Of a stretch of DNA of 64,000 bases, positions 13,345 through 34,307 are shown one piece after another. The translations under genes were made by a program, and so were the position numbers. Source of the stretch: a plasmid; sequence record NZ_CP035506.1; one strand, given 5' to 3'. Below the pieces are notes generated by a model. That model did no database searches. It saw only the letters and a program-made list of their open reading frames with translations, and was not told the origin of the DNA. How positions within the stretch are numbered: the first letter of the stretch is position 1; each line of letters begins with the position of its first letter.

Positions 13345-14273
13345 ATCGTTCCGCCTCCTGCCTGGCGCAGCATCCAGACCATACGTTGCAGCCGCAGGCG
13401 GAACAGCGTGCCCGCGGCCCGGATCCGCTCACCCGGCCCGGTAAGCTGGGTACTGGTCATCACCTTGGGAAGGTGGGCGACAGCACTGGCCGGCATGGCC
13501 AGCGCCTTTACCGCCCATTTGGCGTGTGACCCGGCCCCTTCGAATTCATAGGCCTCGCGCGTCATCCGGTTCCACTTCTTGCGAAGCGCCGCCCAGTCGG
13601 AGCGCGAGGGATGCGACACGCGCAGCTCCGGCGCGGCGCCAAGACGCCAGCCCTTGGATGTCGCCCGACGGCACCATTCGAGATCCTCGGACAGCCCGTT
13701 TCTGAGCGGCCCGGTGTGGAGAAAGACCTCCCGCCGCGTGACGAGATTGGCCGTGACCGAAAAGCCCTTCTTCTCGATATAGCCCTTCCAGTCGAAGGCG
13801 AAGACCGCTTCGAAGGCTTCCGCACCCGTACGGGGAGGCGGGGTTTCGTCGAAAATGTCGATGCGCCCGCCGAAGAGGTCGCCGTCCTGCCGTCCGCCGG
13901 TGGCCCGCGCCTGCGCGATCCAGTCGTCCGCGGGCAGGCAGTCGGCATCGAGAAAGGCCAGCACCGGCGCGGTCGTTTCCTTCACCCCGCGGTTGCGGGC
14001 GGGGCCTGCTCCCTTTTCGGCCTCGGTCACGAAGCGGGCGAAGGGAAAGGCCTCTGCGATGGGGGCCAGCGGCTCGGTGGAACCGTTGTCCACGACCACC
14101 ACCTCCACCCCCCTCAGATCCTGAGAAGCGAGTGCGGACAGGCAGCGCCGCAGGCGGGTGGTGTCGTTGTAATGGGGAATGATGACCGCCAGATCGGGAG
14201 CGGCGGTGCCGGGAGCCATCCCGCCGCCGCCTGCTGCCGGCTCAGTAGCCTGAATAGTCGTAGGAATAGTCAT
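13341..14273 (-). CDS. Glycosyltransferase family 2.
   Basis: Carries ...LAVIIPHYND...VVVDNGST...LDADC... motifs. An alternative start at 14219 (MAPGT) would avoid the overlap with the upstream kinase gene. Confidence 0.7.
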   Translation of the reverse strand: MTIPTTIQATEPAAGGGGMAPGTAAPDLAVIIPHYNDTTRLRRCLSALASQDLRGVEVVVVDNGSTEPLAPIAEAFPFARFVTEAEKGAGPARNRGVKETTAPVLAFLDADCLPADDWIAQARATGGRQDGDLFGGRIDIFDETPPPRTGAEAFEAVFAFDWKGYIEKKGFSVTANLVTRREVFLHTGPLRNGLSEDLEWCRRATSKGWRLGAAPELRVSHPSRSDWAALRKKWNRMTREAYEFEGAGSHAKWAVKALAMPASAVAHLPKVMTSTQLTGPGERIRAAGTLFRLRLQRMVWMLRQAGGGTI

Positions 14274-15096
14274 CGCTCGTGATCCGGCATTTGTTCAGCA
14301 CCACGCCCATGACCTGTGTAAGCTCCGACACCTGGCGTTCGGCGGTGTCGATCTGGGACATCGGGGTTTCCTCGGCTGCGACCACGATCAGCGCACAGTC
14401 GACATTGCGCAGGAAGCCGATGGAATCGTCCCCCGTGAACAAGGGCGGAAGGTCGAAGATGGTGAAGTTCGGCTTGTACTGCGCCTCGATCTCCGCAAGC
14501 GCGGTCTTGGTGCGCTGGCTCTGCAGGAGTTCGGCCGGATGGCGCACCGTCTGGCCGTTCAGCCCGAAGGCCACGTTGTCGCCATAGCGCAGCGCGTGTT
14601 CCGAAAACGGCACCCGCCCTTCGATCACGTCTTCCATCGTGTGGCTGACCTTCTGATCCAGAGCATGGGCCAGGGTCACGCGCCGAAGGTCGAAGTCGAT
14701 GACAAGACTGCGGTAATCGCTCTGCCGGGCAAGGCTGAAGGCGAGATTGGCCACAGTCGTCGTCTTTCCCGCGGCGGCCCCGGCCGAGATGACGGCGATT
14801 CGCCGCCAGCCATGGGTTTCGGCCTGCTGGACGAGCCGCGTGCGCAGGATGTCATAGGCCGCCCCGGGCCCGCCGGGATGCAGGGCGATGAGATCGCCCT
14901 GTTTCGAATAGGCCGGCCGCGACGTGTCGAGCGGCCGCAGGGCGGCCCAGGCCGCATCGACCCCATTGCCCTCCACGGCGCTCCCCACCGCGGAAGCCGT
15001 GCCCTGCTGCTGCATGGGCGGCGGCGGAGTGTACTCCGGCCGTGTATCCTCCCGCTGGGCCCGGGCCTTTTCGATCGCTGCCTGCAAGCGTTCCAT
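14242..15096 (-). CDS. Polysaccharide co-polymerase tyrosine autokinase (BY-kinase cytoplasmic domain, CpsD/Wzc C-terminal-like).
   Basis: Walker A is SAGAAAGKTTT, and the C-terminal tyrosine cluster is SDDYSYDYSGY. Start taken at the ATG at 15096, with ggag 8 nt upstream. The track ORF runs to 15219, which would overlap the upstream gene. Confidence 0.75.
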   Translation of the reverse strand: MERLQAAIEKARAQREDTRPEYTPPPPMQQQGTASAVGSAVEGNGVDAAWAALRPLDTSRPAYSKQGDLIALHPGGPGAAYDILRTRLVQQAETHGWRRIAVISAGAAAGKTTTVANLAFSLARQSDYRSLVIDFDLRRVTLAHALDQKVSHTMEDVIEGRVPFSEHALRYGDNVAFGLNGQTVRHPAELLQSQRTKTALAEIEAQYKPNFTIFDLPPLFTGDDSIGFLRNVDCALIVVAAEETPMSQIDTAERQVSELTQVMGVVLNKCRITSDDYSYDYSGY

Positions 15097-15130
15097 CAGA
15101 ATGTCTCCGTCACGATCGTTTCCCGGCCTG

Positions 15131-16642
15131 TCAGAGGCCGATCTGTTCCTTGACCTGCTCGGCGAGAACGTCGAGCGGCTGATAATAGGTATGGATGCTC
15201 CAGACGATGGCCGGAACACAGATGAGAATGAGCAGGATCAGCGCCGCCTTGAGGCTCCGGTGCACCACGGCCTCCCGCGAGGAGCGGATGTAGGGAATCG
15301 TGGCGATCGGCATGATCCCGAGTTTCTTGACGATATCCTCCGGCCGGCGCGGCGAGCGGTTCAGGAGATCCATCAGCAGCACGAGAGCCAGACCGGCGAG
15401 AATGCCGGCGCCGAGACCCCCGCCCGCGATCAGAATCCGGTTGGGCTTGGCTGCGTTGCTGGGCACCACCGGCTGTTGCAGGATGGTGATGCGCTGCCCG
15501 CGCGCCTGGCGTTCGATCCTTTCGCCCGTGGAGGCGTCGAAAAGACGATTCTGGATCGAGGAATACTGGCTCTGGATATTGTCATAGTCACGCTGCAATG
15601 CAGCGAGAGCGACATTGTTCACCGAAGCGCGGCTGATCGCATCCTGAATGCGGCTGATTTCGCCCTGAAGCTGCTCTTCCTGCGCCTTGAGGGTACCGAT
15701 CCGTCCGTCGATCTCGGCCATCTGGGCCTTGAGCGGGTCGCTCTGGTCCGGCTGGGCCGTGCCGGCGATGGTGGCTTCAAGCTGGGCGATCTGGCTTTTC
15801 AGGATACGGATGCGGGGATTGTCGGGGGCATAGACGGCCAGCGCCTGGTTCAGCTGGTTCCGCATCTGGGCAAGCTGCTGTTGCTGGGGGCTCGCATTCT
15901 GCGAGGTGACCGCCTGGATCTGCCCGGTGGACTGGAAGACCTGAATGACGCGGGCCCGTTGTTCGGTCAGGCTCGAGATGTCCCGCCCAAGCTGGTCGTG
16001 CCGCGCCTGCATGGTGATGAGCTGTTGCTGGCGATAGGACTGATCTTCCGGGAGCGCGTCGGCATTCTCCGCCTTGAAGCGGAGGATCTTGGCGCTCTGC
16101 TCGTTCAGCGCGGTCGAGAGCCGTTCGACTTCCTGCTGGAAGAAGTCGTAGGTCTGGCCTGCCATGCCGGTGCGGGATTCCACGTCGTCCCGCTGGATGA
16201 CGCTCAGATATTCGTTGACCACGGCGGCCGCCAGCTGGGGCGTGGGCGCGTCGAAAGAGATGGTCATCTGCCTTGCGCCTTCGCGCGGGGCGATGATCTT
16301 CGTCGTCGTCCGGCTGTTCATGTAGCTCGCGATGTCGTCGGCGCTCATCTGCGCGATACCGGGAATGTTGACCCGGCGCGCCACGTCGATGACATTGGAG
16401 CGGGAGATCAGCCGCTGTTCGATGATTTGCAACCGTTCGAGCGGCGATGTCGTTACCGTGGGAGCGGCAAGACGCGATGGGATCTGCGGCTCTTCGACCA
16501 CGAAGCGGGTCGCGGAGACATAGGTCGGCGGCAGGGTCATCGCGATGATGATACCGATGGCGGTGATCGCCACGGCCGGGATCAGGAACCAGTGCAGCCG
16601 CCGCAGAAAGACGGAGGTGTAATATTTGAGAGTGGCCTTCAC
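15131..16642 (-). CDS. Polysaccharide chain-length determinant (Wzz/PCP transmembrane-periplasmic module). This is the split partner of the BY-kinase at 14242-15096.
   Basis: An N-terminal TM helix is followed by a long coiled-coil periplasmic domain (Q-rich) and a C-terminal TM helix with a GGGLGAG motif. The PEP-CTERM-locus subfamily shows the same arrangement. Confidence 0.75.
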   Translation of the reverse strand: MKATLKYYTSVFLRRLHWFLIPAVAITAIGIIIAMTLPPTYVSATRFVVEEPQIPSRLAAPTVTTSPLERLQIIEQRLISRSNVIDVARRVNIPGIAQMSADDIASYMNSRTTTKIIAPREGARQMTISFDAPTPQLAAAVVNEYLSVIQRDDVESRTGMAGQTYDFFQQEVERLSTALNEQSAKILRFKAENADALPEDQSYRQQQLITMQARHDQLGRDISSLTEQRARVIQVFQSTGQIQAVTSQNASPQQQQLAQMRNQLNQALAVYAPDNPRIRILKSQIAQLEATIAGTAQPDQSDPLKAQMAEIDGRIGTLKAQEEQLQGEISRIQDAISRASVNNVALAALQRDYDNIQSQYSSIQNRLFDASTGERIERQARGQRITILQQPVVPSNAAKPNRILIAGGGLGAGILAGLALVLLMDLLNRSPRRPEDIVKKLGIMPIATIPYIRSSREAVVHRSLKAALILLILICVPAIVWSIHTYYQPLDVLAEQVKEQIGL

Positions 16643-17502
16643 GCCGTCGTCTCCTCTTCTTCCGGGCCAAGCGCGTTGGCACCGAAGAATACCTGATCTT
16701 CAATAACGTTCTGAACGGTTTCTTCCGTGACCTGTGGGGTTTCGCTGCTCCAGGCGTAAAGCATGCAGAAATCGCACAGTTGGTTGACGAGCCGCGGCAC
16801 GCCGCGCGTGGCGGCATGAATGGCGGTGGCCGCCCCGGGGGTGAATTCCGTCCCCGTGCCCCCGGCCTTCACCAGCCGATGGGCGATGTATCCGGCGACC
16901 GCATCGGCATCCATCGCGTTCAGATGGAAGGAGGCCGCCACCCGCTGCGCGAGCTGGCGCATGTTGGGATGCAGCACCATCGCCTTCAGCTCGGGCTGGC
17001 CGACGAGGATGAGCTGGATCAGCTCGTCCTTGCCGGAGTTGATGTTGGTGAGCAGCCGGAGTTCCTCCAGCCCCTCGATGGAGAGGTTCTGCGCCTCGTC
17101 GAAGATCAGGATCACCCGCCGCCCGGCGGCATATTCGGTGATCAGGAACTCCTGCAGCTTCTGGAACATCTGCACATAGGTCTCGCCCGGCGTGATCGGC
17201 ACGGCGAGCGCGTTCAGCACCCATTGCAGAAGCTCCCCCCGCCCGCCCTGCGCGTTGGAGACGAGACCGATGGTCACGTCCTCCTCCAGCCGGTTCAGCA
17301 GCTCGCGCAGCAGCGTCGTCTTGCCAGAGCCGATCTCGCCGGTGATGAGCGTGATCGGCGCGCGGGACAGGATGCCGAATTCCAGAACCGAGAAGGCGCG
17401 GCGATGCTGGGCCGACCAGTAGAGAAAGGAAGGATCCGGCAGCAGCGTGAAGGGACGCTCCCGAAGGCCGAAGAATTCCGCGTAAAGCTGCTGTGGGGCC
17501 AT
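16639..17502 (-). CDS. ExeA/GspA-like AAA ATPase (the 'secretion ATPase' of PEP-CTERM/exosortase loci).
   Basis: The N-terminus is MAPQQLYAEFFGLRERPFTLLPDPSFLY...LITGEIGSGKTTLLREL, which gives a Walker A, and ILIFDEAQNL gives a Walker B. This pattern is typical of ExeA. The gene is translationally coupled to wzz. Confidence 0.75.
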   Translation of the reverse strand: MAPQQLYAEFFGLRERPFTLLPDPSFLYWSAQHRRAFSVLEFGILSRAPITLITGEIGSGKTTLLRELLNRLEEDVTIGLVSNAQGGRGELLQWVLNALAVPITPGETYVQMFQKLQEFLITEYAAGRRVILIFDEAQNLSIEGLEELRLLTNINSGKDELIQLILVGQPELKAMVLHPNMRQLAQRVAASFHLNAMDADAVAGYIAHRLVKAGGTGTEFTPGAATAIHAATRGVPRLVNQLCDFCMLYAWSSETPQVTEETVQNVIEDQVFFGANALGPEEEETTA

Positions 17503-18071
17503 GAATTGCCTTCAGTTACTCTCGTCCGGACCTGGTCGGTCCCTTGCGGGATGCCTATAGCACTCCGCTCTCAAACAATCACCCTGCAACCGGGGGACGA
17601 AACCCCTCTGTGCAGATCTCTCCAATTTGCGGCAGGATGGGCACAATCCTCCGCCCCGTCGATTATGCCCGCTGCCTGACCGGAGGCCGAGAGTCCAGTT
17701 TCGTCGGTCCGGGGACGACAAGGCAAGAGGCGGTGGGGCATGTTCACGATTATGTTGAAGTCCCTTCGGCGGTTTAGCCGCTTCCGCGGCGACGCTTCAC
17801 CCTGATCTGCGAACAATGTGCGGCAAAGTGAAACAATTCGCAATGCTGCAACTGCACAATCAATGTGCACGTGTGAGAAAAACTGTATTTTCATGTTGTT
17901 GGGGGGTGGACGATTAACATTAATGCCCAAACTCCCTTTGCGGGCGCGAGAAAGAATGGTAAGCATTCTGTTAACGCACCGGCACCGCATATATTGGCAC
18001 GGCAGAATCGTGTTGCTCCACGCTGCAGGCTCTTCCTCCCCCCTGGGAGCCTCGGAAACGGGAACGGACTT
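17503..18071. promoter_or_regulatory. Divergent promoter region between the ExeA-like/wzz/kinase operon and the sugar-transferase/TPR/Wza/OMP/exosortase operon. It is locally AT-rich.
   Basis: A 570-bp non-coding gap between divergently oriented operons. Its GC content is clearly lower than its surroundings, and it contains short palindromes (gtgcac, gttaac). Confidence 0.3.
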
Positions 18072-18758
18072 ATGACTGTACATTTCAATTCCGCTTCGCA
18101 GACAGGCCTTTCTTCCTCCCTCGATCAGGACAATCCCCTCGCCACCCCTTCGGGCATTTACCGGAATGGCGCGAAACGGACGATCGACATCCTCCTCATC
18201 GTCCTGGCGCTTCCCTTCGTCCTTCCCGTGCTTGCCATCATGGCGGGCTTCGTGATGATGGACGGGCATTCCCCCTTCTACCGTCAGGAGCGCGTGGGCC
18301 GCGGCGGGCGTCACTTCAGCCTGCTGAAGATCCGCACCATGGTTCCAAACGCCAAGGAGAAGCTCGAGGAATATCTCGCCTCCGACCCGGCCGCCCGCGC
18401 CGAATGGGACGAGACGCAGAAACTCAAGTCCGACCCCCGCATCACCTTTGCGGGCCGCATCCTGCGCAAGACCTCGCTCGACGAACTGCCGCAGCTCTGG
18501 AACGTGCTCAAGGGCGACATGTCCCTCATCGGGCCGCGCCCCATGATGCCGGAACAGCGCGCGCTCTATCCCGGCCAGGCCTATTATGAGCTGCGTCCCG
18601 GCATTACCGGATCGTGGCAGGTGTCGGACCGCAACGAAGGCTCTTTCGCGGGCCGCGCAAAATTTGATCTCGATTATTACAACTCCCTGTCTTTCGTAAA
18701 GGATTTGTCAATTCTCCTGCGTACAGTGGCTGTTGTTGTGCGGGGGACGGGATACTAA
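18072..18758 (+). CDS. Short 'bacterial sugar transferase' (ExoY/PssA/EpsB-like undecaprenyl-phosphate hexose-1-phosphate transferase). This is the priming enzyme of cluster A.
   Basis: A single N-terminal TM helix plus a PF02397-like catalytic domain (...KIRTM...DELPQLWNVLKGDMSLIGPRP...). The ATG at 18072 is in frame with the track ORF 17994. Confidence 0.75.
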   Translation: MTVHFNSASQTGLSSSLDQDNPLATPSGIYRNGAKRTIDILLIVLALPFVLPVLAIMAGFVMMDGHSPFYRQERVGRGGRHFSLLKIRTMVPNAKEKLEEYLASDPAARAEWDETQKLKSDPRITFAGRILRKTSLDELPQLWNVLKGDMSLIGPRPMMPEQRALYPGQAYYELRPGITGSWQVSDRNEGSFAGRAKFDLDYYNSLSFVKDLSILLRTVAVVVRGTGY

Positions 18759-18800
18759 CCTCGTCTCTGGAAAAATGCGTCCGGGATTGGTCCGGGCGCC

Positions 18801-21296
18801 ATGGACGAAGGTGAGGATGTGACGGGCAAGAAGGTTCTTCGGGGGCGGATCGGCCTCGGTATTGCGCTGGCGGCTGGTATCGGGCTGCTCGCGGGCTGCG
18901 AATCCTCCGAGGAAAAGGCGCAGAAACACTACGAATCCGGGCTTGCCCTGCTGGAGCAGGGCGATGTCAGCCGGGCGATGGTGGAATTCCGCAACGTCTT
19001 CTCTCTCGACGGAAATCACCAGGAGGCAAGGCAGACCTATGCGCGGCTCCTGCGGGAGCAGGGCAGCGTGCGGGAGGCCTACAGCCAGTATCTCCGCCTC
19101 GTCGAACAATATCCTGACAATGCAGAGGGCAACCGGGCGCTGGCGGAGATGGCGCTCGATGCGAGCAACTGGGACGATGCGGACCGTTACGGCCGCGTCG
19201 CGCTGCGTCTGGCGCCCGATGAGCCGGAGGTTCAGGGCATCGGCGCGATGATCGACTACCGGGCCGCGCTGATGAGCCGGGACGAGGCTGCCGGACAGGC
19301 GGCGCTGCAGCGTGCTCAGGCGCTGGTCGGGCAGCATCCCGAGCTTGTCGTCGCGCGGCGGGTGACGCTCGACAGTCTGGTGCGCAAGTCGGACTGGGAG
19401 GCCGTGCTGGCCTCGCTCGACGAAGGGTTGCAGCACGACCCCAACTCCTTCGAGTTTCAGCGGATGCGGGCCGCCGCGCTCTTCCAGCTTGGCCGGACCG
19501 ATGATCTTGAGGCGCAGCTGCGCCAGATGGCCCTTGCCAATCCCGAAGACACAGAGATCGAGAATTCGCTGCTCGGCCTGTTCATCAACCAGAAACGTCC
19601 CGAGGCGGCCGAGGAGTTTCTGCGCAGCCGCGTCGATCCGGCCTCCGCCGATCCGGCGGCGCGCCAGCGGCTGGTGTCCTTCATCGCCCAGACCCGCGGC
19701 ATGCCCGCCGCACGGCAGGAGATCGACCGCATCGTCGCCGGCAATCCGCCGAAGGTCGGTATCTACCGCACCATGCGCGCCGGGATCGATTTCGACGCCG
19801 GAAACCGCGATGGCGCCATGGCTGAAATGCAGTCGATCATCGACAGCAAGCCCGAACCGGATGTGCTGAACCAGGCGCGCGTGACGCTCGCGCGGATGAT
19901 GGCGCAGGTCGGCAACAAGGTTGGCGGCCGGGCTCTGGTGGAGGAGGTGCTCGCCTCCACGCCCAGCGATGTCGATGCGCTTAAACTCAAGGGCAACTGG
20001 CTGATCGACGACGACAGGACCGGCGATGCGCTGGTCGCGCTCCGCTCCGCCCTCGAATATGCCCCCCGCGATCCGCAGATCATGACGCTCATGGCCCGCG
20101 CGCATGAGCGGGACGGCAGCCGAGACCTGATGGGGGAGATGCTTTCCCAGGCGGTGGTCGCCTCCAGCCGGGCGCCGTCCGAATCGCTGCGGTATGCCGC
20201 CTTCCTCGAGCAGGACGGCAAGCACCTTCCGGCGGAGGATGCGCTGGTCAACGCGCTCCGGCTTCAGCCGCGCAACGTCGACCTGCTCTCCGCGCTGGGG
20301 CGCGTCTATGTCGCGATGAAGGACTGGCCGCGCGCCGATCATGTCGTGCGCACCCTGAAGGAGATCGGTACCGATCAGGCGGTCAACTCCGCCAATGAGA
20401 TCACGGCGAACCGGCTCGCCGCGCTGAACCAGGATCAGGAACTCGCCGCCTTCCTGCGCGGTCTGGCCGCGGAGGGGGACAGTGGTCCCGGCGTGGAGCT
20501 TGCCCTGATTCGCACCAGCCTGCTGCGCGGCGACACGCAGGAGGCCCTGCGCCAGGCCGATGCCCTGCTCGCCAAGACGCCCGACAATCCGACGGCCCTT
20601 TACCTCCATGCCGCCGTGCTGCTCTCTGCCGGGCAGAAGGAAGGGCTTGACGAGATGCGCGCCCTTACCCAATCGCATCCCGGTTTCGAGATGGGCTGGG
20701 CCGCGCTGCACAATGCGCTGCTCAGCACCGGCGACACGGAAGGCGCGGGCAAGGTGCTGGAGGCGGGTCTTGCCGCGATTCCGACGGCCCCCACGCTTTC
20801 CTGGATCAAGGCGGGCATTCTGGAGAAATCCGGCGATATCGACGGGGCGATCACTCTTTACGAGGCGATGTACGAGCGCGATTCGAATTCGCCGATCATT
20901 GCCAACAACCTCGCCAGCCTGCTGGCCGGTTACCGGAGTGACGACGCAAGCCTCGACAGGGCCTATACGGTCGCCCGGCGGCTTCGCGGAACGACGGTGC
21001 CTGCCTTCCAGGACACCTATGGCTGGATCGCCTACCGGCGCGGCAACTTTGACGAGGCGCTCAGCAATCTGGAGCCTGCCGCCCAGGGCCTGCCGCAGGA
21101 TGGGACGGTGCAGTATCACCTTGCCATGACCTATTCCGCGCTTGGGCGGAAGGATGAGGCGAAGCAGCTTCTCCTCCGGCTCGATGAGGGGGCCATTCCG
21201 CTTCCTGCCGATTATGCCGACCGGGTAAAGGCGGAGCTTGCCCGCCTTGCCGCGCCGGATGCGCCTGTGGTCTCGACACCCGAGGCGCGCAACTGA
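18801..21296 (+). CDS. TPR-repeat lipoprotein (PEP-CTERM-system TPR-repeat lipoprotein-like, PrsT type).
   Basis: The lipobox is LLAGC|ESS. About 830 aa of repeated TPR-like helices follow. The gene lies between the sugar transferase and the Wza-like gene. The start could instead be the GTG at 18819. Confidence 0.7.
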   Translation: MDEGEDVTGKKVLRGRIGLGIALAAGIGLLAGCESSEEKAQKHYESGLALLEQGDVSRAMVEFRNVFSLDGNHQEARQTYARLLREQGSVREAYSQYLRLVEQYPDNAEGNRALAEMALDASNWDDADRYGRVALRLAPDEPEVQGIGAMIDYRAALMSRDEAAGQAALQRAQALVGQHPELVVARRVTLDSLVRKSDWEAVLASLDEGLQHDPNSFEFQRMRAAALFQLGRTDDLEAQLRQMALANPEDTEIENSLLGLFINQKRPEAAEEFLRSRVDPASADPAARQRLVSFIAQTRGMPAARQEIDRIVAGNPPKVGIYRTMRAGIDFDAGNRDGAMAEMQSIIDSKPEPDVLNQARVTLARMMAQVGNKVGGRALVEEVLASTPSDVDALKLKGNWLIDDDRTGDALVALRSALEYAPRDPQIMTLMARAHERDGSRDLMGEMLSQAVVASSRAPSESLRYAAFLEQDGKHLPAEDALVNALRLQPRNVDLLSALGRVYVAMKDWPRADHVVRTLKEIGTDQAVNSANEITANRLAALNQDQELAAFLRGLAAEGDSGPGVELALIRTSLLRGDTQEALRQADALLAKTPDNPTALYLHAAVLLSAGQKEGLDEMRALTQSHPGFEMGWAALHNALLSTGDTEGAGKVLEAGLAAIPTAPTLSWIKAGILEKSGDIDGAITLYEAMYERDSNSPIIANNLASLLAGYRSDDASLDRAYTVARRLRGTTVPAFQDTYGWIAYRRGNFDEALSNLEPAAQGLPQDGTVQYHLAMTYSALGRKDEAKQLLLRLDEGAIPLPADYADRVKAELARLAAPDAPVVSTPEARN

Positions 21297-21513
21297 GCAG
21301 CCGTTGCCGAAGATGGCCGCCGCAGAGGGCCACCGGAAAGGAATGACGGGCTTGCCCAGCGGAACTTTGCCGGGCAAGCCTTTTATTCCGGCGGATTTTT
21401 CTTCAGAACCGCGGCAGAAGTGTCGCAGTCCTCGCCTTTTGCGGAGCTCGGCTTTCCACCTGCCCGCAAACCTCCTATCCCTGATCGTAACCATTCCCCA
21501 ACGGGTGCGCCTG

Positions 21514-22167: not shown

Positions 22168-22171
22168 GCAG

Positions 22172-23653
22172 ATGACCCCTGCCCGTTCCGCATGCCTCGC
22201 TTCCCTCAGCCGGGAGACCGGGCGGCCCCGTGCTGCGGCAGGCTTTCGCCGGCTGCCGCTCGCATTTCTTCTTCTCGCCGGAACGGCCCTTGTGCCTGTG
22301 GAGGCGCCGGCACAGGCAGCAGGCGATCTGCCGAACCCGCTGCTGACGTTCAGCTTTTCGTCCTCACTGCATGTGAGCGACAACTATGACCTGTCGGATG
22401 ATCCGTCAGGAACCACCACCTATGTCGATAACACACTCGGCCTCAGCTACCTGAGCGAGACGGATGTCCAGAAGCTCAGCCTCGCGGCGAGCGGGGTGCT
22501 GCGTCTGGCCGATTATCCGAGCGATGCGACGAACAGCGGCTACCAGACCGATTTCGACAACCAGACCCTCCGCTTCGGCTATACGCTGACGGGGGCGGAC
22601 AGCGAATTGACATCGTCGGCCTATTACAACCGCGCCGACATCGCCTTCTTCGATCCGTTCCAGCTCGTGCAGGAAAATATCGATCTCGAAGCGCAGGATC
22701 TTTCAACCAGCGACGGGTATCGGGAGATGATCCGCGCCAGTGTCGGCTTCCGCACCGGCATGTCCGGGCCGCTCAGCTTCAATGCGGGGCTGAGCGCCTA
22801 CAAGCGGAACTTCCTTGAGACGAGCGACACGAGCTTCGAAGACAACGAAACCTATACGGCGACGGCAGGTTTCGGCTTCCTGATCACGCCGACCACCCGG
22901 CTGACGCTGGACGGGTTGTATCGCGACTATTCCGCCGACGATACGGAGCAGACCGACCGGCAGACCCGCTCGCTCTCCACGGGTGCCGTGCATGAGGTCA
23001 GTACCGGGCTCACGCTCAATGGCTCCATAGGCTATCAGGAGATCGAGAGCGAGAAGACCGATCTCTCCGGCTACCGCGGAACAGAGCGGACGACCGGGGT
23101 CATCGGCACTCTCGGCGCCACGCAGGAGCTGACCAACGGCACGGTCGGAATCAGTTTCGACCAGAGCCAGAATACCTCCGGCAGCCGTTCCACCCTCCAG
23201 GTGTCCCGCGCAATGGACCTGCCGAGCGGCAGCCTTGCGCTCAGCCTCGGCGCCTCGCGGGGCGACAGCGGCAAGACGACCGCCATCGGGTCGATCACCT
23301 ACAATCATGACCTGGAGAATGGGAGCCTTTCCGCACGGCTGTCGCAATCGGTCAGCACCAACAGCGACGACGAAGAGGTGGAGGCGCGCAATTTCCTGCT
23401 CCGGCTATCGCATGAGCTGACCCCGGTTTCGGGTGTTTCGCTGAGCGTAAGCTATGCCGATCTCAACAACCTCCAGGATTCCGGGGGCGACCGGACGCGC
23501 AGTCAGATCCGCGCGGCCTATTCCCATGACCTGACCCGGGACTGGGAGCTTTCGGGCGGTTACGAATATACCCAGCTGGAGCGCCCCGCAGGAACGGCCA
23601 AGGAAAACGCCGTCTTCCTGACCATACAGCGCCAGTTCCTTTTCAGGCCCTGA
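22172..23653 (+). CDS. Putative outer-membrane beta-barrel protein associated with the exosortase locus.
   Basis: A signal-peptide-like segment (RRLPLAFLLLAGTALVPVEAPAQA) is followed by 450 aa rich in S/T/G/Y/D with alternating beta-strand-like periodicity. It sits immediately upstream of the exosortase. Confidence 0.45.
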   Translation: MTPARSACLASLSRETGRPRAAAGFRRLPLAFLLLAGTALVPVEAPAQAAGDLPNPLLTFSFSSSLHVSDNYDLSDDPSGTTTYVDNTLGLSYLSETDVQKLSLAASGVLRLADYPSDATNSGYQTDFDNQTLRFGYTLTGADSELTSSAYYNRADIAFFDPFQLVQENIDLEAQDLSTSDGYREMIRASVGFRTGMSGPLSFNAGLSAYKRNFLETSDTSFEDNETYTATAGFGFLITPTTRLTLDGLYRDYSADDTEQTDRQTRSLSTGAVHEVSTGLTLNGSIGYQEIESEKTDLSGYRGTERTTGVIGTLGATQELTNGTVGISFDQSQNTSGSRSTLQVSRAMDLPSGSLALSLGASRGDSGKTTAIGSITYNHDLENGSLSARLSQSVSTNSDDEEVEARNFLLRLSHELTPVSGVSLSVSYADLNNLQDSGGDRTRSQIRAAYSHDLTRDWELSGGYEYTQLERPAGTAKENAVFLTIQRQFLFRP

Positions 23654-23847
23654 GCTCAGGACCTGAAAAGATCCGTGGGGCCGGGTGCGCTCTCACAACC
23701 ATGTGAATTTTCTGTACCATTCGCGGCCGGGTCATGGTTTTGCTTCGGTTTCCGCATGTGCAGCCTTATGTTATACAGGGACATACTTCCGGCGAATATG
23801 CCGGGCGCCCTGGGCTATCCCCGGCCACATTTGACTAGAGGATTTCC

Positions 23848-25452
23848 ATGACGGCCGCGAACGAGAATTCCCGCTCCTCCCTGGCGGCTGCGCTTCCCTC
23901 GGTGAACGCCCCCGGTTTCATGTGGTTCATTCTGCTTCTGGCCGGGTCGATCCCGATCTTCTGGATCGGCTTCGTCTCGTTGGCGAAGGCCTGGTCCACG
24001 CCGGAATACAGCCATGGGCCGCTCATTCCGCTGATCTCGCTCTACCTCTTCCTGCGGGAGCTGCGGCAGATGCCTCCGCCCGCGGCCGAGGTGCGGGACC
24101 GCTGGCCGGGGCTCCTCGTCATTCTGCTGGGCCTCGTGGTTGCGCTGTTCGGCAACCTCACCCGCATTCCCGACATCGTCACCTATGCGATGATCATCTG
24201 GGTGGGCGGTGTGGTCCTCACCGTCTTCGGCTGGGAGCGGGGCAAGCATCATCAGCTTCCTGTCCTGCACCTGATCTTCATGCTGCCGCTGCCGCAGTTC
24301 CTCTACTGGCACCTGACGATCTTCCTGCAGGGGATCTCGTCGGAGATCGGCGTGTGGTTCGTGCGCCTTGCCGGTGTGCCGGTCTATCTCGAAGGCAATG
24401 TGATCGACCTCGGGGTCTACAAGCTGCAGGTGGCGGAAGCCTGTTCGGGCCTGCGCTACCTGTTCCCGATCCTGAGCTTCACCTATCTCTTCGCCATCCT
24501 CTATCGCGGCCCCTTCTGGCACAAGGCTGTGCTGATGCTGTCGGCCGTGCCGCTCACCGTGCTGATGAACTCCTTCCGCATCGGGGTGATCGGGGTGCTG
24601 GTGAACTCCTATGGTATCGAGCATGCCGAAGGGTTCCTGCACTTCTTCGAAGGCTGGGTGATCTTCATCGCCTGTATCGGCATCCTGTTCCTGATGGCGA
24701 TGGGCCTGCAACGGCTGACGCGGAACCCGCTGCCGCTGGCGGAGGCGATCGACCTCGATACCCGCGGCATGGCGCCGCTCATGGGGCGCATCCTGTCGAT
24801 CCGCCCCTCGAAGGCGCTGGCGGCGGGGGCACTGCTGACGCTTGCCCTGTCGGCGGGCTGGGCGCTGCATGGCGGGCCGCAGGCCCAGCAGATGGACCGG
24901 GAGCCTTTCGCGCTCTTCCCCCGGCAGTTCGGGGAATGGTCGGGCGCGGCCTCCGGTCTCGACCCGGAGATCGAGCGGGTGCTGGCCGCGACCGATTACA
25001 TGAACGCCGCCTATACCGCACCGGGCGAGAAGGACTATGTGCATTTCTTCTCGGCCTATTACGAGAAGCAGACGGAAGGCGCCGGCATCCACTCGCCGGA
25101 AGTCTGTCTCCCGGTCGGGGGCTGGGAGATCTTCACCTTCCAGCCGCACGAGGTGAGCTTCCCGGGAACGCCCTACGGTACCTTCACCGTGAACCGGGCG
25201 GTAATCCAGAAAGGGTTGTCCAAACAGCTCGTCTATTACTGGTTCGAGCAGCGCGGCAAGCGGATGACCAACGATTATCTCGCCAAGGCCAGCGTCGTCT
25301 GGGACAGCCTGACCCGCGGCCGTACGGACGGGGCGCTGGTGCGCTATGTCACCCCGATCGGCACGAACGAGAGCGAGGCCGACGCCGATGCCCGCATTCA
25401 GCGGCTGATGGCGAAAAGCCTGAACGTCCTGCCCCGCTACATTCCGTTCTGA
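23848..25452 (+). CDS. Exosortase fused to a C-terminal EpsI-family domain. It is predicted to be VPLPA-CTERM-specific (XrtD-like).
   Basis: The N-terminal 300 aa form a polytopic membrane domain with the conserved exosortase residues: Cys in [12 protein letters not shown], Arg in NSFRIGV, and an HFFEGW region. The C-terminal 230 aa form a soluble EpsI-like domain. RBS is GAGGA. A single VPLPA-CTERM gene lies in the same locus. Confidence 0.8.
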
Positions 25453-25474
25453 CTTGCTGAAGGCAAACTGAACA

Positions 25475-25496
25475 ACCCGGCTCCGGCCGGGTTTTC
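25475..25496 (+). terminator. Rho-independent terminator after the exosortase gene.
   Basis: Stem CCCGGC, loop TCCG, stem GCCGGG, followed by TTTT. Confidence 0.5.
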
Positions 25497-25784
25497 TGCG
25501 TTGCAGCATGTCGGGCGCAGCGAATCCCCCTTGTTCGGACACAACTTTCCAAAACGAAAGTATTCAACAGTTCACCTGCAAGCAGGTGGATGAAAGAGAA
25601 TTTTCAATCCTAAGACGAAGATGATTGCCTCTCCCATTTCGCGCCTCACGATAAAAGTTATTAAAAATAACACCTTTACGGCGAGCGCATCGGGCTATTC
25701 CAGCGAACAAGTTCAAGAAATTCCGATCTTTTGTGCCATATCGGGGACAAAGGCGCTCTCTTAGGGTCAGGACTCTTTCTCGGG

Positions 25785-26000
25785 TCATAGCCAGAACATG
25801 ACGGTTGCTGCGAGAGCGATGGCGGAAAGGAAGACCTTGGGGCACCTGTCGTAGCGGGTTGCGACGCGGCGCCAGTCCTTCAATCGCCCGAACATGATCT
25901 CAATCCTGTTGCGGCGTCTGTAGCGGCGCTTGTCATACTTGATGGGTATGCCGCGCGATTTCCGGCCGGGGATGCAGGGTTTTATCCCCTTGTCCTTCAA
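25785..26000 (-). pseudogene. C-terminal fragment of the IS5-family transposase orfB, displaced by the Tn3 insertion.
   Basis: The 71-aa sequence is identical to the C-terminus of the intact transposase at 55106-55738. Confidence 0.8.
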
Positions 26001-26081
26001 CGCTTCTCTGAACCAGTCGGCATCATAGCCGCGGTCCGCCAGCAGCCAGGGGGCTGATGCCGGAGGGGGCAGGATCCTACG

Positions 26082-28967
26082 TTAAGCCCTTTTCGGCCAC
26101 TTGTATTCGCCAGTGAGCAGGACATGGGCCCAACCGAGGGGCGAGATGTGCGCCAGAAGGTTCGGCGAACAGTCCAGGCCTTCGCGGCGGCGGCTGGCGA
26201 CGGCCTGGCCGAGATGCTTGGTGTTCCAGTAGATGACGATCGCGGCAAGAAGGTTCAGCCCGGCCATGCGGAAGTGCTGGGCTTCGGAGGTGCGGTCCCT
26301 GATCTCGCCCTGGCGGCCGATGCGGAGAGCGTTCTTCAGCGCGTGGTGGGCTTCGCCCTTGTTCAGGCCGATCTGGGCGCGGCGCTGCATGCCGGCATCA
26401 AGCAGCCAGTCGATGATGAAGAGCGTCCGTTCGACCCGTCCGATTTCCCGCAAGGCGACCGCCAGTTCATGTTGCCTCGGGTAGGACGCGAACTTCCGCA
26501 GGAGTTGGCTCGGCGGGATGGCTCCTGACGCCATGGTCGCCACGCTGCGCAGGATATCGGGCCAGTTCGCGGCGATGAGGGACTGCCTGATCTTGCCGCC
26601 GATCAGCCCTTTCAGCTCTTTCGGGCAGGCGGCCGGATCGAAGAGGTAGAGGCGCTTGGATGGCAGGTCGCGGATGCGGGGGATGAACTGGAAGCCCAGC
26701 AGGGCGGTGACGGCGAAGACGTGGTCGGTGAAGCCGCCAGTATCGGCATATTGCTCCCGGATCTTCTGCCCGGCGCTGGTCATCAGCAGGCCATCGAGGA
26801 TGTAGGGCGCTTCGTTCACGGTAGCCGGGATGGTCTGTGTGGCGAAGGGACCGAACTGGTCGGAGACATGGGTGTAGGCTTTCAGCCCGGGCTCATGGCC
26901 GTACTTGGCGTTGATCAGATTCATCGCCTCGCCCTGGCGTGTCGTCGGGAAGAACTGCCCGTCGCTCGATGCGGTCTGTCCGGCGCCCCAGAACTGCGCC
27001 ATCGGCAGTGCCGACTGCCCGTCGATCACCATGGCCAGGGCGCGGGCCATCGCCTCGCTTTCGACATGCCAGCGCGACAGGCGGGAAAGCTGGAAGAAGT
27101 CGTGCGTGTTCGTGGCCCCGGCCATCTTGCTGAGGCCGAGATTCAGCCCCTCGGCAAGCAACACGTTCAGCAGGCCGATCCGGTCCCTGCACGGCGCGCC
27201 GGTGCGCAGATGCGTAAAGGCCTCGGTGAAGCCAACCTCCGCATCCACTTCGAGCAGGAGATCGGTGACCCTGACTTCCGGCAGGCGGCCATAGAGGTCG
27301 AGCACCAAGGCGTCGGCTTCCTCGGGAACCGCCGCAGCCAGCCGGTCGATTTTCAAGGTGCCGTCCTCGATGGAGCCTCCCGGCATGGTCCCGGCCCTAG
27401 CCGCACGCGCCAGGCGATGCAGGGCGTCAGCCATTCGGGCTTTGCGGTCGGCCAGCCAGGTTTCCGGCTCGAACGGCATGGCCAGCCTCGGCGTGGCGCG
27501 GGCGACGTCGACCGGGACCAGCGCTTCCTTCAGGTCGCCATACCTGCGCGAATGCGCCAGCCAGATATCACCGGAACGGAAGGCTTCGCGCAGATGGAAC
27601 AGGACCGCGACCTCCCATATCCGGTGCTCATCTTCGCCATCCAGGTGGCGGTGCCACTTCGAGGCGCGGCGCAGAAAGGTCAGCGGCCGGACGTCTGGTG
27701 TCGCCGTGCCCGCGATGACCGCGCTTGCCGCCAGCAGCGGCTCCGCCACGGGCGCGGCACAGATGTCGAGTACCCGCAGCATGCGCGGCGCATAACGCCG
27801 GAAGCGATGATATCCGTGACCGACATGCGCCAGCGGATCAGCGGCAAACGTGTCGGTCAGTTGAGCGGCCGTGGCGACAAGCCCCTTGAGGGATATCCAG
27901 CCGCCGGCATTGCCGACGGCCTCTTCGAGAGAGGCCCGATCCTCATGCGCTTCCAGGAGCGCCGCTCCCAATGTCCTGAAGGATTGCAGGGTGTCCTTCA
28001 GCGCCGATCTGGCATCGTCCATCCGGGCGTCACATCGTGACTTCGCCTCGCGCCAGGTCTTGCCCACGATGCGGTCATGGGTCTCGACGACAGCGTCAGC
28101 AATGGCGCAGCGCCATTCCAGCGCGCAGACCGCAAGGATGGCGAGGCGGCGGTCACCCGAGATATCCCTCAGATCGCCTGCGAAGTATCGCTCTCCCTGC
28201 CGACGAAGGCGGGCAACGCGGTGTGGCGGCACATCCGCCAGAATGCCCCGGTCCAGCGCCAGCGCGCGCAGGTATTCCAGCCGGTCCAGAAGGCGGTTCA
28301 TGTCGGCCGAATTCTGCCCGGTTTCGAACTGGCGCAGCCAGACGAACCGCGTGACCGAGCCGCCCGCATCTTCGGTCAGGAGGGCATCGAGACGTGCTCG
28401 CATGGCATCGTCCAGCCGGCCACCGATCCGGGCGTCGATCCGGCGCTCGGCCGCGACAAGCGCCTCCGCGCAAAGCCGCTCGATGACCGTGATCCCCGGG
28501 AAGATGGTCTGGGTTGCCCGGCACTGCTCGACGAAGCGCCGTGCCAGATCCTCGTTCGACCGGGCGGCTTCGGCGGCATCCTCAAGCCATATTTTCAGGT
28601 CACGTGCCCCACGGCCCGCGAACATCTTGTAGCCATAGATCTCGCGCAAGGCGGCCAGGTGCTCATGCCGGGTCTCTTCCCGGGTCGCATACCCGGCCAG
28701 ATCGTCAGGCCTCATCCCGAGCTGCGCTGCCAGAAAGCGCGTGACCGCCAGCGGAATGACCTCGCCCGGCGCCAGCAGCCGCCCCGGATACCGAAGCGCG
28801 CAGAGCTGCAGGGCGAAACCGAAGCGGTTGTGCGGACGACGACGGGCGCGGACGATCTCCAGATCGTCGTCTGCCAGCGTGTAGTGGCGCAGCATCGACG
28901 CGTCATCGGTCGGCAGGTCGAACAATGCCGCCCTTTGCCGGGCGGTCAGGATGCTGCGTCTTGGCAT
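26082..28967 (-). CDS. tnpA: Tn3-family transposase TnpA (961 aa).
   Basis: Its size and N-terminus (MPRRSILTARQRAALFDLPTDDASMLRHYTLADDDLEIV...) are typical of Tn3 TnpA. The gene sits inside the GGGG-type IRs. Confidence 0.9.
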   Translation of the reverse strand: MPRRSILTARQRAALFDLPTDDASMLRHYTLADDDLEIVRARRRPHNRFGFALQLCALRYPGRLLAPGEVIPLAVTRFLAAQLGMRPDDLAGYATREETRHEHLAALREIYGYKMFAGRGARDLKIWLEDAAEAARSNEDLARRFVEQCRATQTIFPGITVIERLCAEALVAAERRIDARIGGRLDDAMRARLDALLTEDAGGSVTRFVWLRQFETGQNSADMNRLLDRLEYLRALALDRGILADVPPHRVARLRRQGERYFAGDLRDISGDRRLAILAVCALEWRCAIADAVVETHDRIVGKTWREAKSRCDARMDDARSALKDTLQSFRTLGAALLEAHEDRASLEEAVGNAGGWISLKGLVATAAQLTDTFAADPLAHVGHGYHRFRRYAPRMLRVLDICAAPVAEPLLAASAVIAGTATPDVRPLTFLRRASKWHRHLDGEDEHRIWEVAVLFHLREAFRSGDIWLAHSRRYGDLKEALVPVDVARATPRLAMPFEPETWLADRKARMADALHRLARAARAGTMPGGSIEDGTLKIDRLAAAVPEEADALVLDLYGRLPEVRVTDLLLEVDAEVGFTEAFTHLRTGAPCRDRIGLLNVLLAEGLNLGLSKMAGATNTHDFFQLSRLSRWHVESEAMARALAMVIDGQSALPMAQFWGAGQTASSDGQFFPTTRQGEAMNLINAKYGHEPGLKAYTHVSDQFGPFATQTIPATVNEAPYILDGLLMTSAGQKIREQYADTGGFTDHVFAVTALLGFQFIPRIRDLPSKRLYLFDPAACPKELKGLIGGKIRQSLIAANWPDILRSVATMASGAIPPSQLLRKFASYPRQHELAVALREIGRVERTLFIIDWLLDAGMQRRAQIGLNKGEAHHALKNALRIGRQGEIRDRTSEAQHFRMAGLNLLAAIVIYWNTKHLGQAVASRRREGLDCSPNLLAHISPLGWAHVLLTGEYKWPKRA

Positions 28968-29132
28968 GGCGATCTTTCAGGAAATCGTGATGGACGACCG
29001 TCCGTAAGGGGATCGGTGAGCGGACATGTGTCGAGAGGGTTGGGAGCGGTAAGGAAACCGCACTCCATCCTATCTCGTATAGATGGTACGATTTGATTCG
29101 CACATGCCGCCCCTTATCCGTACACTCGCTAC
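28968..29132. promoter_or_regulatory. Putative res site and divergent promoters between tnpA and tnpR.
   Basis: The position between the divergent tnpA and tnpR genes is the standard Tn3 organisation. Individual subsites were not resolved. Confidence 0.35.
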
Positions 29133-29720
29133 ATGACCGTGACCAAAATTGGCTATGCCCGCTGCTCCACCGACCGTCAGGACCTGACAGCGCAACGTGC
29201 TGCCCTTGCAGAGCTTGGGGTCACCGTAGACCGCATCTACACGGACCATGGCCTGACCGGCACGAACCGCGCCCGCCCCGGTCTCGACCAAGCGCTTGCT
29301 GCTGTGCGAGAAGGCGACGTGCTGGTCGTGCCGAAACTCGATCGCCTTGCGCGCTCGGTCCCGGACGCACGGGCCATCGCGGATCAGTTGGAAAAGAAGG
29401 GCGTCAAGCTTGCCCTCGGCGCATCGGTCTACGATCCGACCGACCCGATGGGAAAGATGTTCTTCAACATCCTCGCCACCTTCGCCGAGTTCGAGGCCGA
29501 CCTCATCCGCATGCGTACCCGCGAAGGTATGGCCATCGCCCGAGCCAGGGGCAAGCTTCGGGGAAAGCAGCCGAAACTCTCGGAAAAACAACAAAAAGAA
29601 CTGAGCCGGATGCACGCCTCCGGCGAATATTCCATCAGCGATCTCGCTGAGCTCTTTGCCGTCTCAAGACCGACCGTCTACAGGACGCTGCAGCGAAATC
29701 CGGCCAAAACTCAGCCTTAG
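29133..29720 (+). CDS. tnpR: Serine recombinase/resolvase TnpR.
   Basis: The N-terminal catalytic motif is GYARCSTDRQD (with the catalytic Ser). A C-terminal HTH is also present. Confidence 0.9.
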   Translation: MTVTKIGYARCSTDRQDLTAQRAALAELGVTVDRIYTDHGLTGTNRARPGLDQALAAVREGDVLVVPKLDRLARSVPDARAIADQLEKKGVKLALGASVYDPTDPMGKMFFNILATFAEFEADLIRMRTREGMAIARARGKLRGKQPKLSEKQQKELSRMHASGEYSISDLAELFAVSRPTVYRTLQRNPAKTQP

Positions 29721-29752
29721 CGTAGGATTCTGCCCCCTCCGGCATCAGACCC

Positions 29753-30264
29753 CAGCCAGTCCGCCTTTGGCAAGCTGCCCAGAAGTGCTGCGGCACCCGT
29801 GTAGTCACTGACCTGACCTGCGGTCACGAAGAAGCGGATTGGCCGGCCATCAGCATCGGTGACGGCGTGCAACTTGGTGTTCATGCCGCCCTTGGTTCGG
29901 CCGATCAATCGGCCCCTCTGATCGTTGGCTCCCCCTTTTTCGCTCGCAGGCTGGTCGCCGTGCGATGCGCCTTGAGATAGGTCGCGTCGATCATCACCGT
30001 CTCCGGAACTGCCGACTCTGCCGCCAGGCCGAGCATCATCCGGGCGAAGACACCCCTGTCGCTCCACCGCTTCCAACGGTTGTAGAGCGTCTTCGACGGG
30101 CCATACTCCTTGGGAGCGTCGCGCCATCGCAAACCATTGCGATTAATGAAGATAATGCCGCTGAGAACGCGCCGGTCATCAACACGCGGCTTGCCATGGC
30201 TCTTGGGAAAGAAGGGCTCCAGGCGCGACATCTGCGCCTCCGTCAGCCAAAAGAGGTTGCTCAT
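29753..30264 (-). pseudogene. IS5-family transposase: orfA is intact, and the N-terminal part of orfB is truncated at the Tn3 junction.
   Basis: orfA (29905-30264) is identical to the orfA of copy 2. orfB matches copy 2 up to ...LPKADWL and then reads into the Tn3 IR. Confidence 0.8.
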
Positions 30265-30474
30265 TCATCGGTCTCCTTGCGGAGCCTGAATCATGCTGAA
30301 AGCGCAAGATCAATGGGTCCTGACCCTAAGCGCAAGCAGCTGAGTTTTATTAATAAACTAGGAAATATTAAAAAAACCACTGTCACGCCGCATCGCAACA
30401 TGTTAATAATTGACATAAGCGTGATGAACTCGGCTCCGGCCCCTGAGCCGATTGGCAGAATTATGGAGAGAAAC

Positions 30475-31026
30475 ATGTTGAAGAAGGTTGTTACGGCTGC
30501 CCTCATCGCCGCGGCCTCCGCTGCCTCGGCAAATGCTGCTGTCATTTATGCAAGCAGCGTGGTTTCGGCTAAACAGAAGGGCTATGTTGCGCCGGTGCGC
30601 AGCAACCCGATCGCAGCAACGGGTGCCGAGGATGGGAGCTTCTACTCCCTCGGCTTCGGTGGCAGCATCGTGCTCGGCTTCTCGAGCCTGGTGAGCGGCG
30701 CTGGGAAGGTGTTCGAAGTCACCAACCTCCCGCGGGAAACCTATATCGAGAGCGCGATCTTCTCGGTCAGCCTCGACGGAAAATCCTGGACCACTCTGGG
30801 AGAATACTCCAACCAGGTCAGCTCGCTCTATTCGGCGACGCCGTTCCTCTTCCTCAAGGTGGAGGATACCAGCCCGGTGATCGCCGGCCATGGCCGTGAC
30901 GGCTATGACATCGACGCCATCGGCTTCGAAGAATATGTCGCCGCGGTTCCGCTTCCGGCGGCGGGCCTGCTGCTGATCGGTGGTCTGGCCGGCCTGGGTG
31001 CCATGAAGCGCCGCAAAGCGGCCTGA
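30475..31026 (+). CDS. VPLPA-CTERM sorting-domain protein, the predicted exosortase substrate. It is a small secreted protein with an unknown N-terminal domain.
   Basis: Signal peptide MLKKVVTAALIAAASAASANA. The C-terminus is ...EEYVAAVPLPAAGLLLIGGLAGLGAMKRRKAA: a VPLPA motif, a hydrophobic helix and a basic cluster. RBS GGAGAG is 5 nt upstream. An alternative ATG is at 30463. Confidence 0.75.
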   Translation: MLKKVVTAALIAAASAASANAAVIYASSVVSAKQKGYVAPVRSNPIAATGAEDGSFYSLGFGGSIVLGFSSLVSGAGKVFEVTNLPRETYIESAIFSVSLDGKSWTTLGEYSNQVSSLYSATPFLFLKVEDTSPVIAGHGRDGYDIDAIGFEEYVAAVPLPAAGLLLIGGLAGLGAMKRRKAA

Positions 31027-31057
31027 GCCTCAAGAAACGATTTTCGGAACGCCGGTG

Positions 31058-31090
31058 CGATTGCGCCGGCGTTTTGCTTTCCGGGTTGCT
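31058..31090 (+). terminator. Probable terminator after the VPLPA-CTERM gene.
   Basis: Stem GCCGG, 9-nt loop, stem CCGGC, then gttttgcttt. Confidence 0.4.
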
Positions 31091-34293: not shown

Positions 34294-34307
34294 TCCTGGA
34301 AGAGCCC

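Follow-up and report, generated by a model that had tools for sequence, protein, structure and literature searches.

A probable XrtD/VPLPA-CTERM protein-sorting module with a neighbouring rhomboid protease gene in an exopolysaccharide locus of Haematobacter

The 64,000-nucleotide stretch of sequence record NZ_CP035506.1 analysed here (referred to as the window; G+C content about 65%) carries a gene for the exosortase XrtD and, further downstream on the same strand, a gene for a small protein with a VPLPA-CTERM sorting tail (referred to as the cargo), and this module is flanked by two sets of polysaccharide genes. With a probability of roughly 0.8, we regard it as a standard Rhodobacterales-type XrtD/VPLPA-CTERM sorting module within a Wzx/Wzy-type exopolysaccharide locus of Haematobacter. 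The replicon is probably a plasmid or chromid of H. massiliensis strain OT1. Haematobacter genomosp. 1 H2240 and H. massiliensis CCUG 47968 both share the XrtD protein of the window with 100% identity, and their DNA around xrtD matches that of the window at about 99.3% identity. A search of PLSDB returned no near match to the XrtD cluster, although the protein encoded next to the cargo is listed by NCBI as QBJ22866.1, 'rhomboid family intramembrane serine protease', with the label '(plasmid) [Haematobacter massiliensis]'. Genes of the window were chosen by their third-position GC and then scanned against NCBIfam and Pfam; scores are given in bits, with curated cutoffs in brackets. For comparison, a set of 80 XrtD loci from Rhodobacterales genomes was used, in which VPLPA tails were counted up to a distance of 10 kb.

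The exosortase gene (23848-25452, plus strand) encodes an XrtD protein with a fused C-terminal EpsI domain (TIGR04152, PF09721, PF11984). It matches TIGR04152 with 710 bits (cutoff 400), residues 45-533 covering positions 1-486 of the 486 in the model, and scores 160 bits against the XrtA model, which is under the cutoff of 208. The EpsI domain at residues ~327-531 matches TIGR02914 with 135.8 bits (cutoff 42.8) and PF11984 with 190 bits. Since TIGR04152 is matched from end to end including the EpsI part, the fusion is a trait of the family and no local novelty. The putative catalytic residues are C199 (AEACSGLRY), R244 (NSFRI) and H265 (GFLHFFEGW), which are conserved in at least 98% of the 80 orthologues; such a Cys/Arg/His triad of exosortases and archaeosortases is stated in the Haft preprint. 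An earlier reading made from the letters of the window alone (the sequence-only reading) had proposed an XrtD-like exosortase with these catalytic residues and an EpsI-like fusion, and both proposals hold. The novelty that it implied does not, because the fusion is built into TIGR04152 and NCBI already names the exact proteins, this one as WP_088215538.1, 'MULTISPECIES: VPLPA-CTERM-specific exosortase XrtD [Haematobacter]'.

The cargo gene (30475-31026, plus strand) is preceded by the Shine-Dalgarno sequence GGAGAG and encodes a signal peptide, a beta-sandwich domain resembling CBM32 and discoidin domains, and a VPLPA-CTERM tail (TIGR03370). The signal peptide is MLKKVVTAALIAAASAASANA, ending in ANA and followed by AV. 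At residues 158-181 of 183 the tail scores 39.7 bits against TIGR03370 (cutoff 25.35) and is tripartite, with VPLPA followed by the transmembrane helix AGLLLIGGLAGLGAM and then KRRKAA. As the sequence-only reading had stated, it is the sole VPLPA-CTERM tail of the window: a regular-expression scan found no other, and a hidden Markov model of the tail gave 38.7 bits for the cargo among 830 six-frame open reading frames, the next best score being 6. The exact Haematobacter protein is named by NCBI as a VPLPA-CTERM protein, and its family comprises about 69 clusters of proteins of 180-200 residues.

The N-terminal domain of the cargo had been said to match nothing recognisable. At the level of sequence it has no match in Pfam, PF00754 (F5_F8_type_C) included, and none in the PDB; PF00754 is found in one fringe homologue only (P0059). 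Structure prediction overturns that statement, as the model is confident (pLDDT 86.5) and shows a galactose-binding-like beta-sandwich of the CBM32/discoidin type. Sequence identity to CBM32 modules (YeCBM32, 2jd9; AlyQ CBM32, 7d2a) amounts to 12-16%. CBM32 modules are appended to glycoside hydrolases or lyases, whereas the domain of the cargo (residues 22-152, with E81, E92, D131 and D145 invariant) stands alone and is followed by a sorting tail. The most economical reading of the predicted fold is that the cargo would be a small lectin binding the polysaccharide of its own locus.

The gene order around xrtD recurs in most of the 80 loci, with kinase, Wzz and ATPase genes on the minus strand and transferase, PrsT, OPX, barrel and XrtD genes on the plus strand. 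VPLPA tails are present within 10 kb in 41 of these loci (51 tails in total, at most three per locus). All fetched loci together yielded 74 tail-bearing open reading frames, which represent about 40 mutually unrelated families of small proteins with signal peptides; 15 of the 74 belong to the family of the cargo. The idea that the small cluster-linked VPLPA proteins form one family was rejected, as a hidden Markov model of the cargo domain matches 8 of the 51 tail-bearing proteins of the genome loci. The preferential linkage of the cargo family to the cluster, which the sequence-only reading had made a test of its proposal, was found: of six members checked elsewhere, five are located within this cluster type, next to either XrtD or the arm of glycosyltransferase, kinase, Wzz and ATPase genes, while the sixth is distant and unlinked. 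The cargo would be a cluster-linked substrate, probably one of several.

The accessory genes form two divergent sets, one on the minus strand (ATPase, Wzz, kinase, glycosyltransferase, Wzy-like) and one on the plus strand (priming transferase, PrsT, short OPX, barrel, XrtD); the cargo gene and then a rhomboid gene follow the plus-strand set, and enzyme and cargo are both intact. The accessory genes named by the sequence-only reading (a split Wzz and BY-kinase, an ExeA-like ATPase, a sugar transferase, a TPR lipoprotein, a small exporter and a barrel) are all real and syntenic across the Rhodobacterales. In detail, the BY-kinase, a P-loop tyrosine autokinase (14242-15219, minus strand; probable true start ATG at ~15096), scores 93 bits against TIGR03018 (cutoff 230.65) and 83 bits against TIGR01007 and is syntenic in most of the 80 loci. 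Separate from the kinase, a Wzz-like polysaccharide co-polymerase or chain-length determinant (15131-16642, minus strand) matches TIGR03007 over residues 5-480 with 181 bits (cutoff 278.85) and has hydrophobic segments near either end. The ExeA-like AAA ATPase of the PEP-CTERM-locus type (16639-17502, minus strand) reaches 277 bits against TIGR03015 (cutoff 324.5) and is an 'ExeA family protein' at NCBI. In the divergent promoter region an open reading frame at 17571-18314 on the minus strand was treated as spurious, having no family match and a low G+C content at third positions.

On the plus strand, a short priming phosphoglycosyl transferase (17994-18758; probable start 18072) consists of the Bac_transf domain only, TIGR03022 and TIGR03025 covering just this C-terminal domain; its counterpart in locus L168 has 228 residues with PF02397. 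It is followed by a PrsT-like TPR lipoprotein (18801-21296) with the lipobox LLAGC at residues ~29-33, 229.5 bits against TIGR02917 (cutoff 312.2) and many TPR matches in Pfam. A short periplasmic OPX protein with Poly_export and SLBB domains (21238-22167; probable start 21514, giving 217 residues as in the NCBI protein) matches PF02563 and PF10531, scores 92 bits against TIGR03027 (cutoff 180) and 62.5 bits for EpsY, and has a signal peptide and no outer-membrane-spanning domain. Next to it, a predicted outer-membrane beta-barrel of about 22 strands without a plug is encoded at 22130-23653 (probable start 22172, 493 residues). For the 507-residue open reading frame AlphaFold2 predicts 22 strands with a pLDDT of 82.6, and Foldseek matches the barrels of TonB receptors, OprD and AlgE at E values of ~1e-8. 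No NCBIfam model, TIGR03016 included, matches this protein at E<=0.01; its homologues are named 'TIGR03016 family PEP-CTERM system-associated outer membrane protein' in UniRef.

Many of these components are shared with XrtA/PEP-CTERM loci such as the EpsH locus of Methylobacillus and that of Zoogloea PepA, namely a separate polysaccharide co-polymerase and BY-kinase, an ExeA-like ATPase, PrsT, a short OPX protein, a barrel that is putatively of the TIGR03016 type and a priming transferase. PEP-CTERM proteins have been tied experimentally to floc formation in Zoogloea. Unlike those loci, the window has XrtD instead of XrtA, a VPLPA instead of a PEP motif, and a rhomboid gene; the regulators PrsK and PrsR were not seen in the window. 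By their scores, the accessory proteins are homologous XrtD-cluster counterparts and not proven equivalogs of the XrtA system. The pairing of a 217-residue Poly_export and SLBB protein with a large plug-less outer-membrane barrel encoded beside it is similar to EpsY/EpsX of Myxococcus xanthus, a composite D1D2-OPX/beta-barrel translocon (PMC9601211), although the EpsX barrel has 18 strands and that of the window a predicted ~22. Judged by their models, the short OPX protein and the barrel (21514-23653, plus strand) look like a composite OPX/beta-barrel translocon.

Directly 3' of the cargo lies a gene for a rhomboid-family intramembrane serine protease (31055-31828, plus strand; probable start 31142 or 31217), which matches PF01694 with 99.8 bits. 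The residues H125/H130/N134, G181-x-S183-G184 and H238, corresponding to the H..N of TM2, the GxSG serine and the TM6 histidine, are invariant among 48 aligned sequences. The linkage of this gene was counted in those 69 XrtD loci whose sequence extends 3 kb or more downstream. In 40 of them a rhomboid gene follows xrtD at a distance of up to 5 kb, and in 27 its open reading frame begins on the same strand at most 76 nt from where that of xrtD ends. Where the distance is larger, VPLPA cargo genes tend to sit in between, as is the case in the window. The reverse test, a metagenome search with a rhomboid profile, gave 45 loci with at least 2 kb of upstream sequence, of which 40 carry genes of the cluster. 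The gene immediately 5' of the rhomboid is xrtD in 10 of the 45, the barrel gene in 17 and a PrsT or transferase gene in 7. None of the 17 barrel-adjoining rhomboids has xrtD within 6 kb, and four of these still have VPLPA tails nearby; in some variants of the cluster, then, the rhomboid occupies the position of xrtD. Contigs WLWD01000005.1 and Ga0310345_10000439 are examples of this barrel-rhomboid arrangement. Given this mixture of upstream genes, the rhomboid is a conserved and often operonic part of the cluster type, without a strict tie to xrtD.

In 20 of 20 members of this rhomboid subfamily the best NCBIfam match is the rhombosortase model TIGR03902, with scores below the cutoff (30-32 against 84; 31.6 bits for the window protein). 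Rhombosortase is a proven C-terminal sorting protease, and the likeness of the window to rhombosortase/GlyGly-CTERM systems consists in a rhomboid-family protease that is genetically linked to tripartite C-terminal sorting signals. The differences are that the score stays far under the cutoff, that the linked tails are of the VPLPA and not the GlyGly type, and that an exosortase is also present. The literature searched contained no paper linking rhomboids to exosortase loci.

The module at 14242-31026 had been described as complete. Its parts are intact; what that description overlooked, apart from the conserved rhomboid gene, is a nested mobile element of 4563 bp (25764-30326) between xrtD and cargo. 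The outer element is an insertion sequence of the IS5 family, the left part of which (25764-26048, minus strand) holds the 3' part of the transposase frame and is 100% identical to part of 54904-55761, while the right part (29754-30326, minus strand; NF033580, 109.6 bits) holds the 5' part with orfA at 29905-30264 and is 100% identical over 577 nt to 54904-55480. Its ends carry the terminal repeats GGGTCAGGAC and GTCCTGACCC, with a TA target duplication at 25762-25763 and 30327-30328. Nested in it is a minimal transposon of the Tn3 family (26049-29753; NF033527, 1062.7 bits, and matches to serine recombinases), which consists of tnpA (26082-28967, minus strand) and a resolvase gene (29133-29720, plus strand) without passenger genes, and which has inverted repeats of 38 bp and a 5-bp duplication, AGCCA, at 26044-26048 and 29754-29758. 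Copies of the transposon with 100% identity are present on three plasmids of H. massiliensis OT1; it is also 99.9% identical on plasmids of Salipiger profundus and about 89% identical on many plasmids of Pseudosulfitobacter. The IS5-family element also has an intact, inverted copy at 54904-55761, which is 100% identical to both halves. The inverted copies could recombine and thereby invert the intervening 24.6 kb.

The empty site is found in H. massiliensis CCUG 47968, in which position 25763 of the window is joined to 30327 with an overlap of 2 bp, so that the ancestral distance between xrtD and cargo was about 460 bp. The insertion point lies 311 bp past the xrtD stop codon and 147 bp before the cargo ATG, and no open reading frame of the module is broken. 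Independent metagenome and run assemblies break inside the insertion sequence or exactly at the transposon junction, so that the nested structure is real. On our reading, the IS5-family element with its nested transposon landed recently in an intergenic region of ~460 bp, where it may alter the expression of the cargo. In Haematobacter genomosp. 1 a different insert of 3.25 kb, flanked by an 89-bp duplication, occupies the same intergenic point (11917-15167 of locus L001). Besides an IS1380-family transposase gene, it contains a gene whose product matches the choice-of-anchor A model TIGR04215 with 138.5 bits and ends in a VPLPA-CTERM tail (26.9 against the cutoff of 25.35). The spot between xrtD and cargo looks like a hot spot of insertion, and the choice-of-anchor A cargo gene of genomosp. 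1 may have been brought in by the insertion sequence.

The original spacer between xrtD and cargo (25500-25763 plus 30327-30474) is markedly AT-rich within the replicon of 65% G+C. Directly 3' of the xrtD stop codon, a GC-rich hairpin (AACCCGGC-TCCG-GCCGGGTT, 25474-25493, plus strand), followed by TTCTGCGT, resembles a terminator with a weak T tract; a scan of the CCUG 47968 sequence flags this hairpin on the minus strand only. In the uninterrupted spacer of CCUG 47968, a weak Rfam match at the hairpin covers only the terminator part of RsmY. According to a published report, cyclic di-GMP riboswitches precede VPLPA/PEP-CTERM genes; at the gathering threshold, no Rfam match to a riboswitch or small RNA was obtained in 13000-35000. 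The intact spacer of CCUG 47968 showed no convincing sigma-70 promoter 5' of the cargo, and no sigma-54-like motif was seen in it by eye.

Of the two flanking polysaccharide gene sets, locus A (914-25452) includes Wzx, pyruvyl-, acyl- and acetyltransferases, an ABC/HlyD pair, a Wzy-like protein and a GT2 glycosyltransferase in addition to the XrtD-cluster genes. Locus B (31818-48126) includes GalE, a full-length Wza, Wzb, Wzc, a WecA-like transferase, glycosyltransferases, Gmd/Fcl and a further Wzx. The wzc gene of locus B (~34781-36960, plus strand) has three frameshifts in the window and is one intact open reading frame of 725 residues in CCUG 47968 and in locus L174; it is either a pseudogene or the product of long-read indel errors of the assembly. 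At the edge of the cluster, the genes of the ABC transporter and HlyD-family protein (8552-11700, plus strand) are similar to type I secretion systems, and in three unrelated metagenome contigs (L164-L166) such a pair adjoins the cargo gene of the same cluster type.

Taken as a whole, the window agrees with the XrtD/VPLPA-CTERM system as defined by TIGR04152 and TIGR03370 in its enzyme, its tail and its alphaproteobacterial (Rhodobacterales) host. Nothing essential differs; the only local oddities are the mobile element that separates cargo from enzyme and a replicon that is probably a plasmid. The system is already known, and names for the exact Haematobacter proteins have already been assigned at NCBI. 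The sequence-only reading had held that the exosortase/PEP-CTERM system is known only from comparative genomics. This is outdated for the superfamily, in which PEP-CTERM PepA and floc formation in Zoogloea, ArtA in Haloferax and CrtB in Nostoc, together with rhombosortase in Vibrio, have been studied experimentally; it appears to be correct for XrtD, as the literature searched contained no experimental study of XrtD or VPLPA-CTERM and one incidental mention.

By analogy to these relatives, the cargo would be exported by Sec, and its C-terminal helix would keep it anchored in the inner membrane while KRRKAA stays on the cytoplasmic side. XrtD, with Cys199 as nucleophile together with Arg244 and His265, would then cleave at VPLPA on the periplasmic face and either release the cargo or hand it over to an acceptor. 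The freed CBM32-like lectin domain might bind the polysaccharide of the same locus and exit with it, or decorate it, via the short-OPX/beta-barrel translocon. Several points weigh against our assignment. The accessory proteins that match TIGR03018, TIGR03007, TIGR03015, TIGR02917 and TIGR03027 all score under the cutoffs set for the XrtA system, and no tail is found up to 10 kb away in 39 of the 80 XrtD loci. In addition, we infer the cleavage at VPLPA, the acceptor and the final location of the cargo by analogy, and its carbohydrate binding from similarity of fold alone.

The 183-residue cargo could also be the sole substrate of XrtD in the genome, which corresponds to the one-enzyme/one-substrate system of the sequence-only reading. 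Its tail is the only one in 64 kb, ancestrally it was encoded directly after xrtD at a distance of ~460 bp, and, according to Haft and Varghese, the target of a sorting system that has just one tends to be encoded beside its enzyme. We nevertheless consider such a dedicated pair unlikely, since a second VPLPA-CTERM gene occupies the same spot in genomosp. 1, which is 99.3% identical over the locus, so that at least two substrates are predicted for the XrtD of Haematobacter in one strain. Moreover, the number of linked tails in other genomes reaches three and is zero in half of them, the tails fall into some 40 unrelated families, and one Tropicimonas genome encodes two different VPLPA proteins. 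Further searches for tails gave the following results. A tail-only profile run against a set of 5.8 billion proteins returned short fragments from other genera and none from Haematobacter; tblastn of the tail against plasmids found nothing, low-complexity masking being the probable cause. Among the annotated features in the first 50 kb of plasmid pOT1-7, one of at least seven plasmids of the strain, there are heavy-metal and conjugation genes and no VPLPA product, and a search of PLSDB plasmids with the second VPLPA protein of Haematobacter gave no near match. It is less probable still that the module is decaying, the nested element having cut the cargo off from its upstream control so that it is silent or misregulated on a plasmid rich in mobile elements. 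The insertion of 4563 bp at 147 bp 5' of the cargo start splits the AT-rich intergenic region, the same transposon is found on at least three other OT1 plasmids, and the neighbouring wzc gene has its three frameshifts. On the other hand, all open reading frames of the module are intact and 99-100% identical to those of empty-site strains, the cargo still has a good Shine-Dalgarno sequence and 147 bp of AT-rich DNA in front of it, and the same insertion is found in several independent samples, hence it is stably carried.

The rhomboid leads to a further alternative, in which it would act on VPLPA-CTERM proteins together with XrtD, whether by clearing the cleaved helix, by providing an alternative way of release, or by replacing xrtD where this gene is absent from the neighbourhood. 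The linkage in both directions, the invariant catalytic residues and the fact that rhombosortase is the nearest curated family are in favour of such a role. Presumably, substrates of rhomboids follow rules of a small P1 residue and hydrophobic P4 and P2' residues, and a cut L-P-A-A/G-L within VPLPAAGL would fit them, which is speculation on our part. However, the argument is one of linkage, 29 of the 69 xrtD loci have no rhomboid gene within 5 kb downstream, the scores are far under the rhombosortase cutoff, and the rhomboid could instead have a different membrane component of the export apparatus as its substrate. We suggest only tentatively, and with more doubt than belief, that the XrtD-type exopolysaccharide clusters of Rhodobacterales include a dedicated rhomboid subfamily, one without a curated model, which may help to process VPLPA-CTERM proteins.

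As it stands, the standard XrtD/VPLPA-CTERM module adds little, XrtD and VPLPA-CTERM being curated families and the annotation being already present. Its practical value is that of a model system, because Haematobacter is culturable and XrtD is without an experimental study in the literature searched. A natural pair of strains, with and without the mobile element beside a small, well-folded, lectin-like cargo, offers a test bed for exosortase cleavage as well as for the coupling of sorted proteins to polysaccharide export. The association with the rhomboid is the only lead worth following. If the rhomboid does take part in the processing, the pathway would combine a cysteine exosortase with a second intramembrane protease, the serine rhomboid, which takes the position of the exosortase in some variants. 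The CBM32-like lectin would then allow both steps to be followed with one small reporter substrate in a Haematobacter that can be cultured. A rhomboid that is functional in this pathway would change the one-protease picture of exosortase systems.

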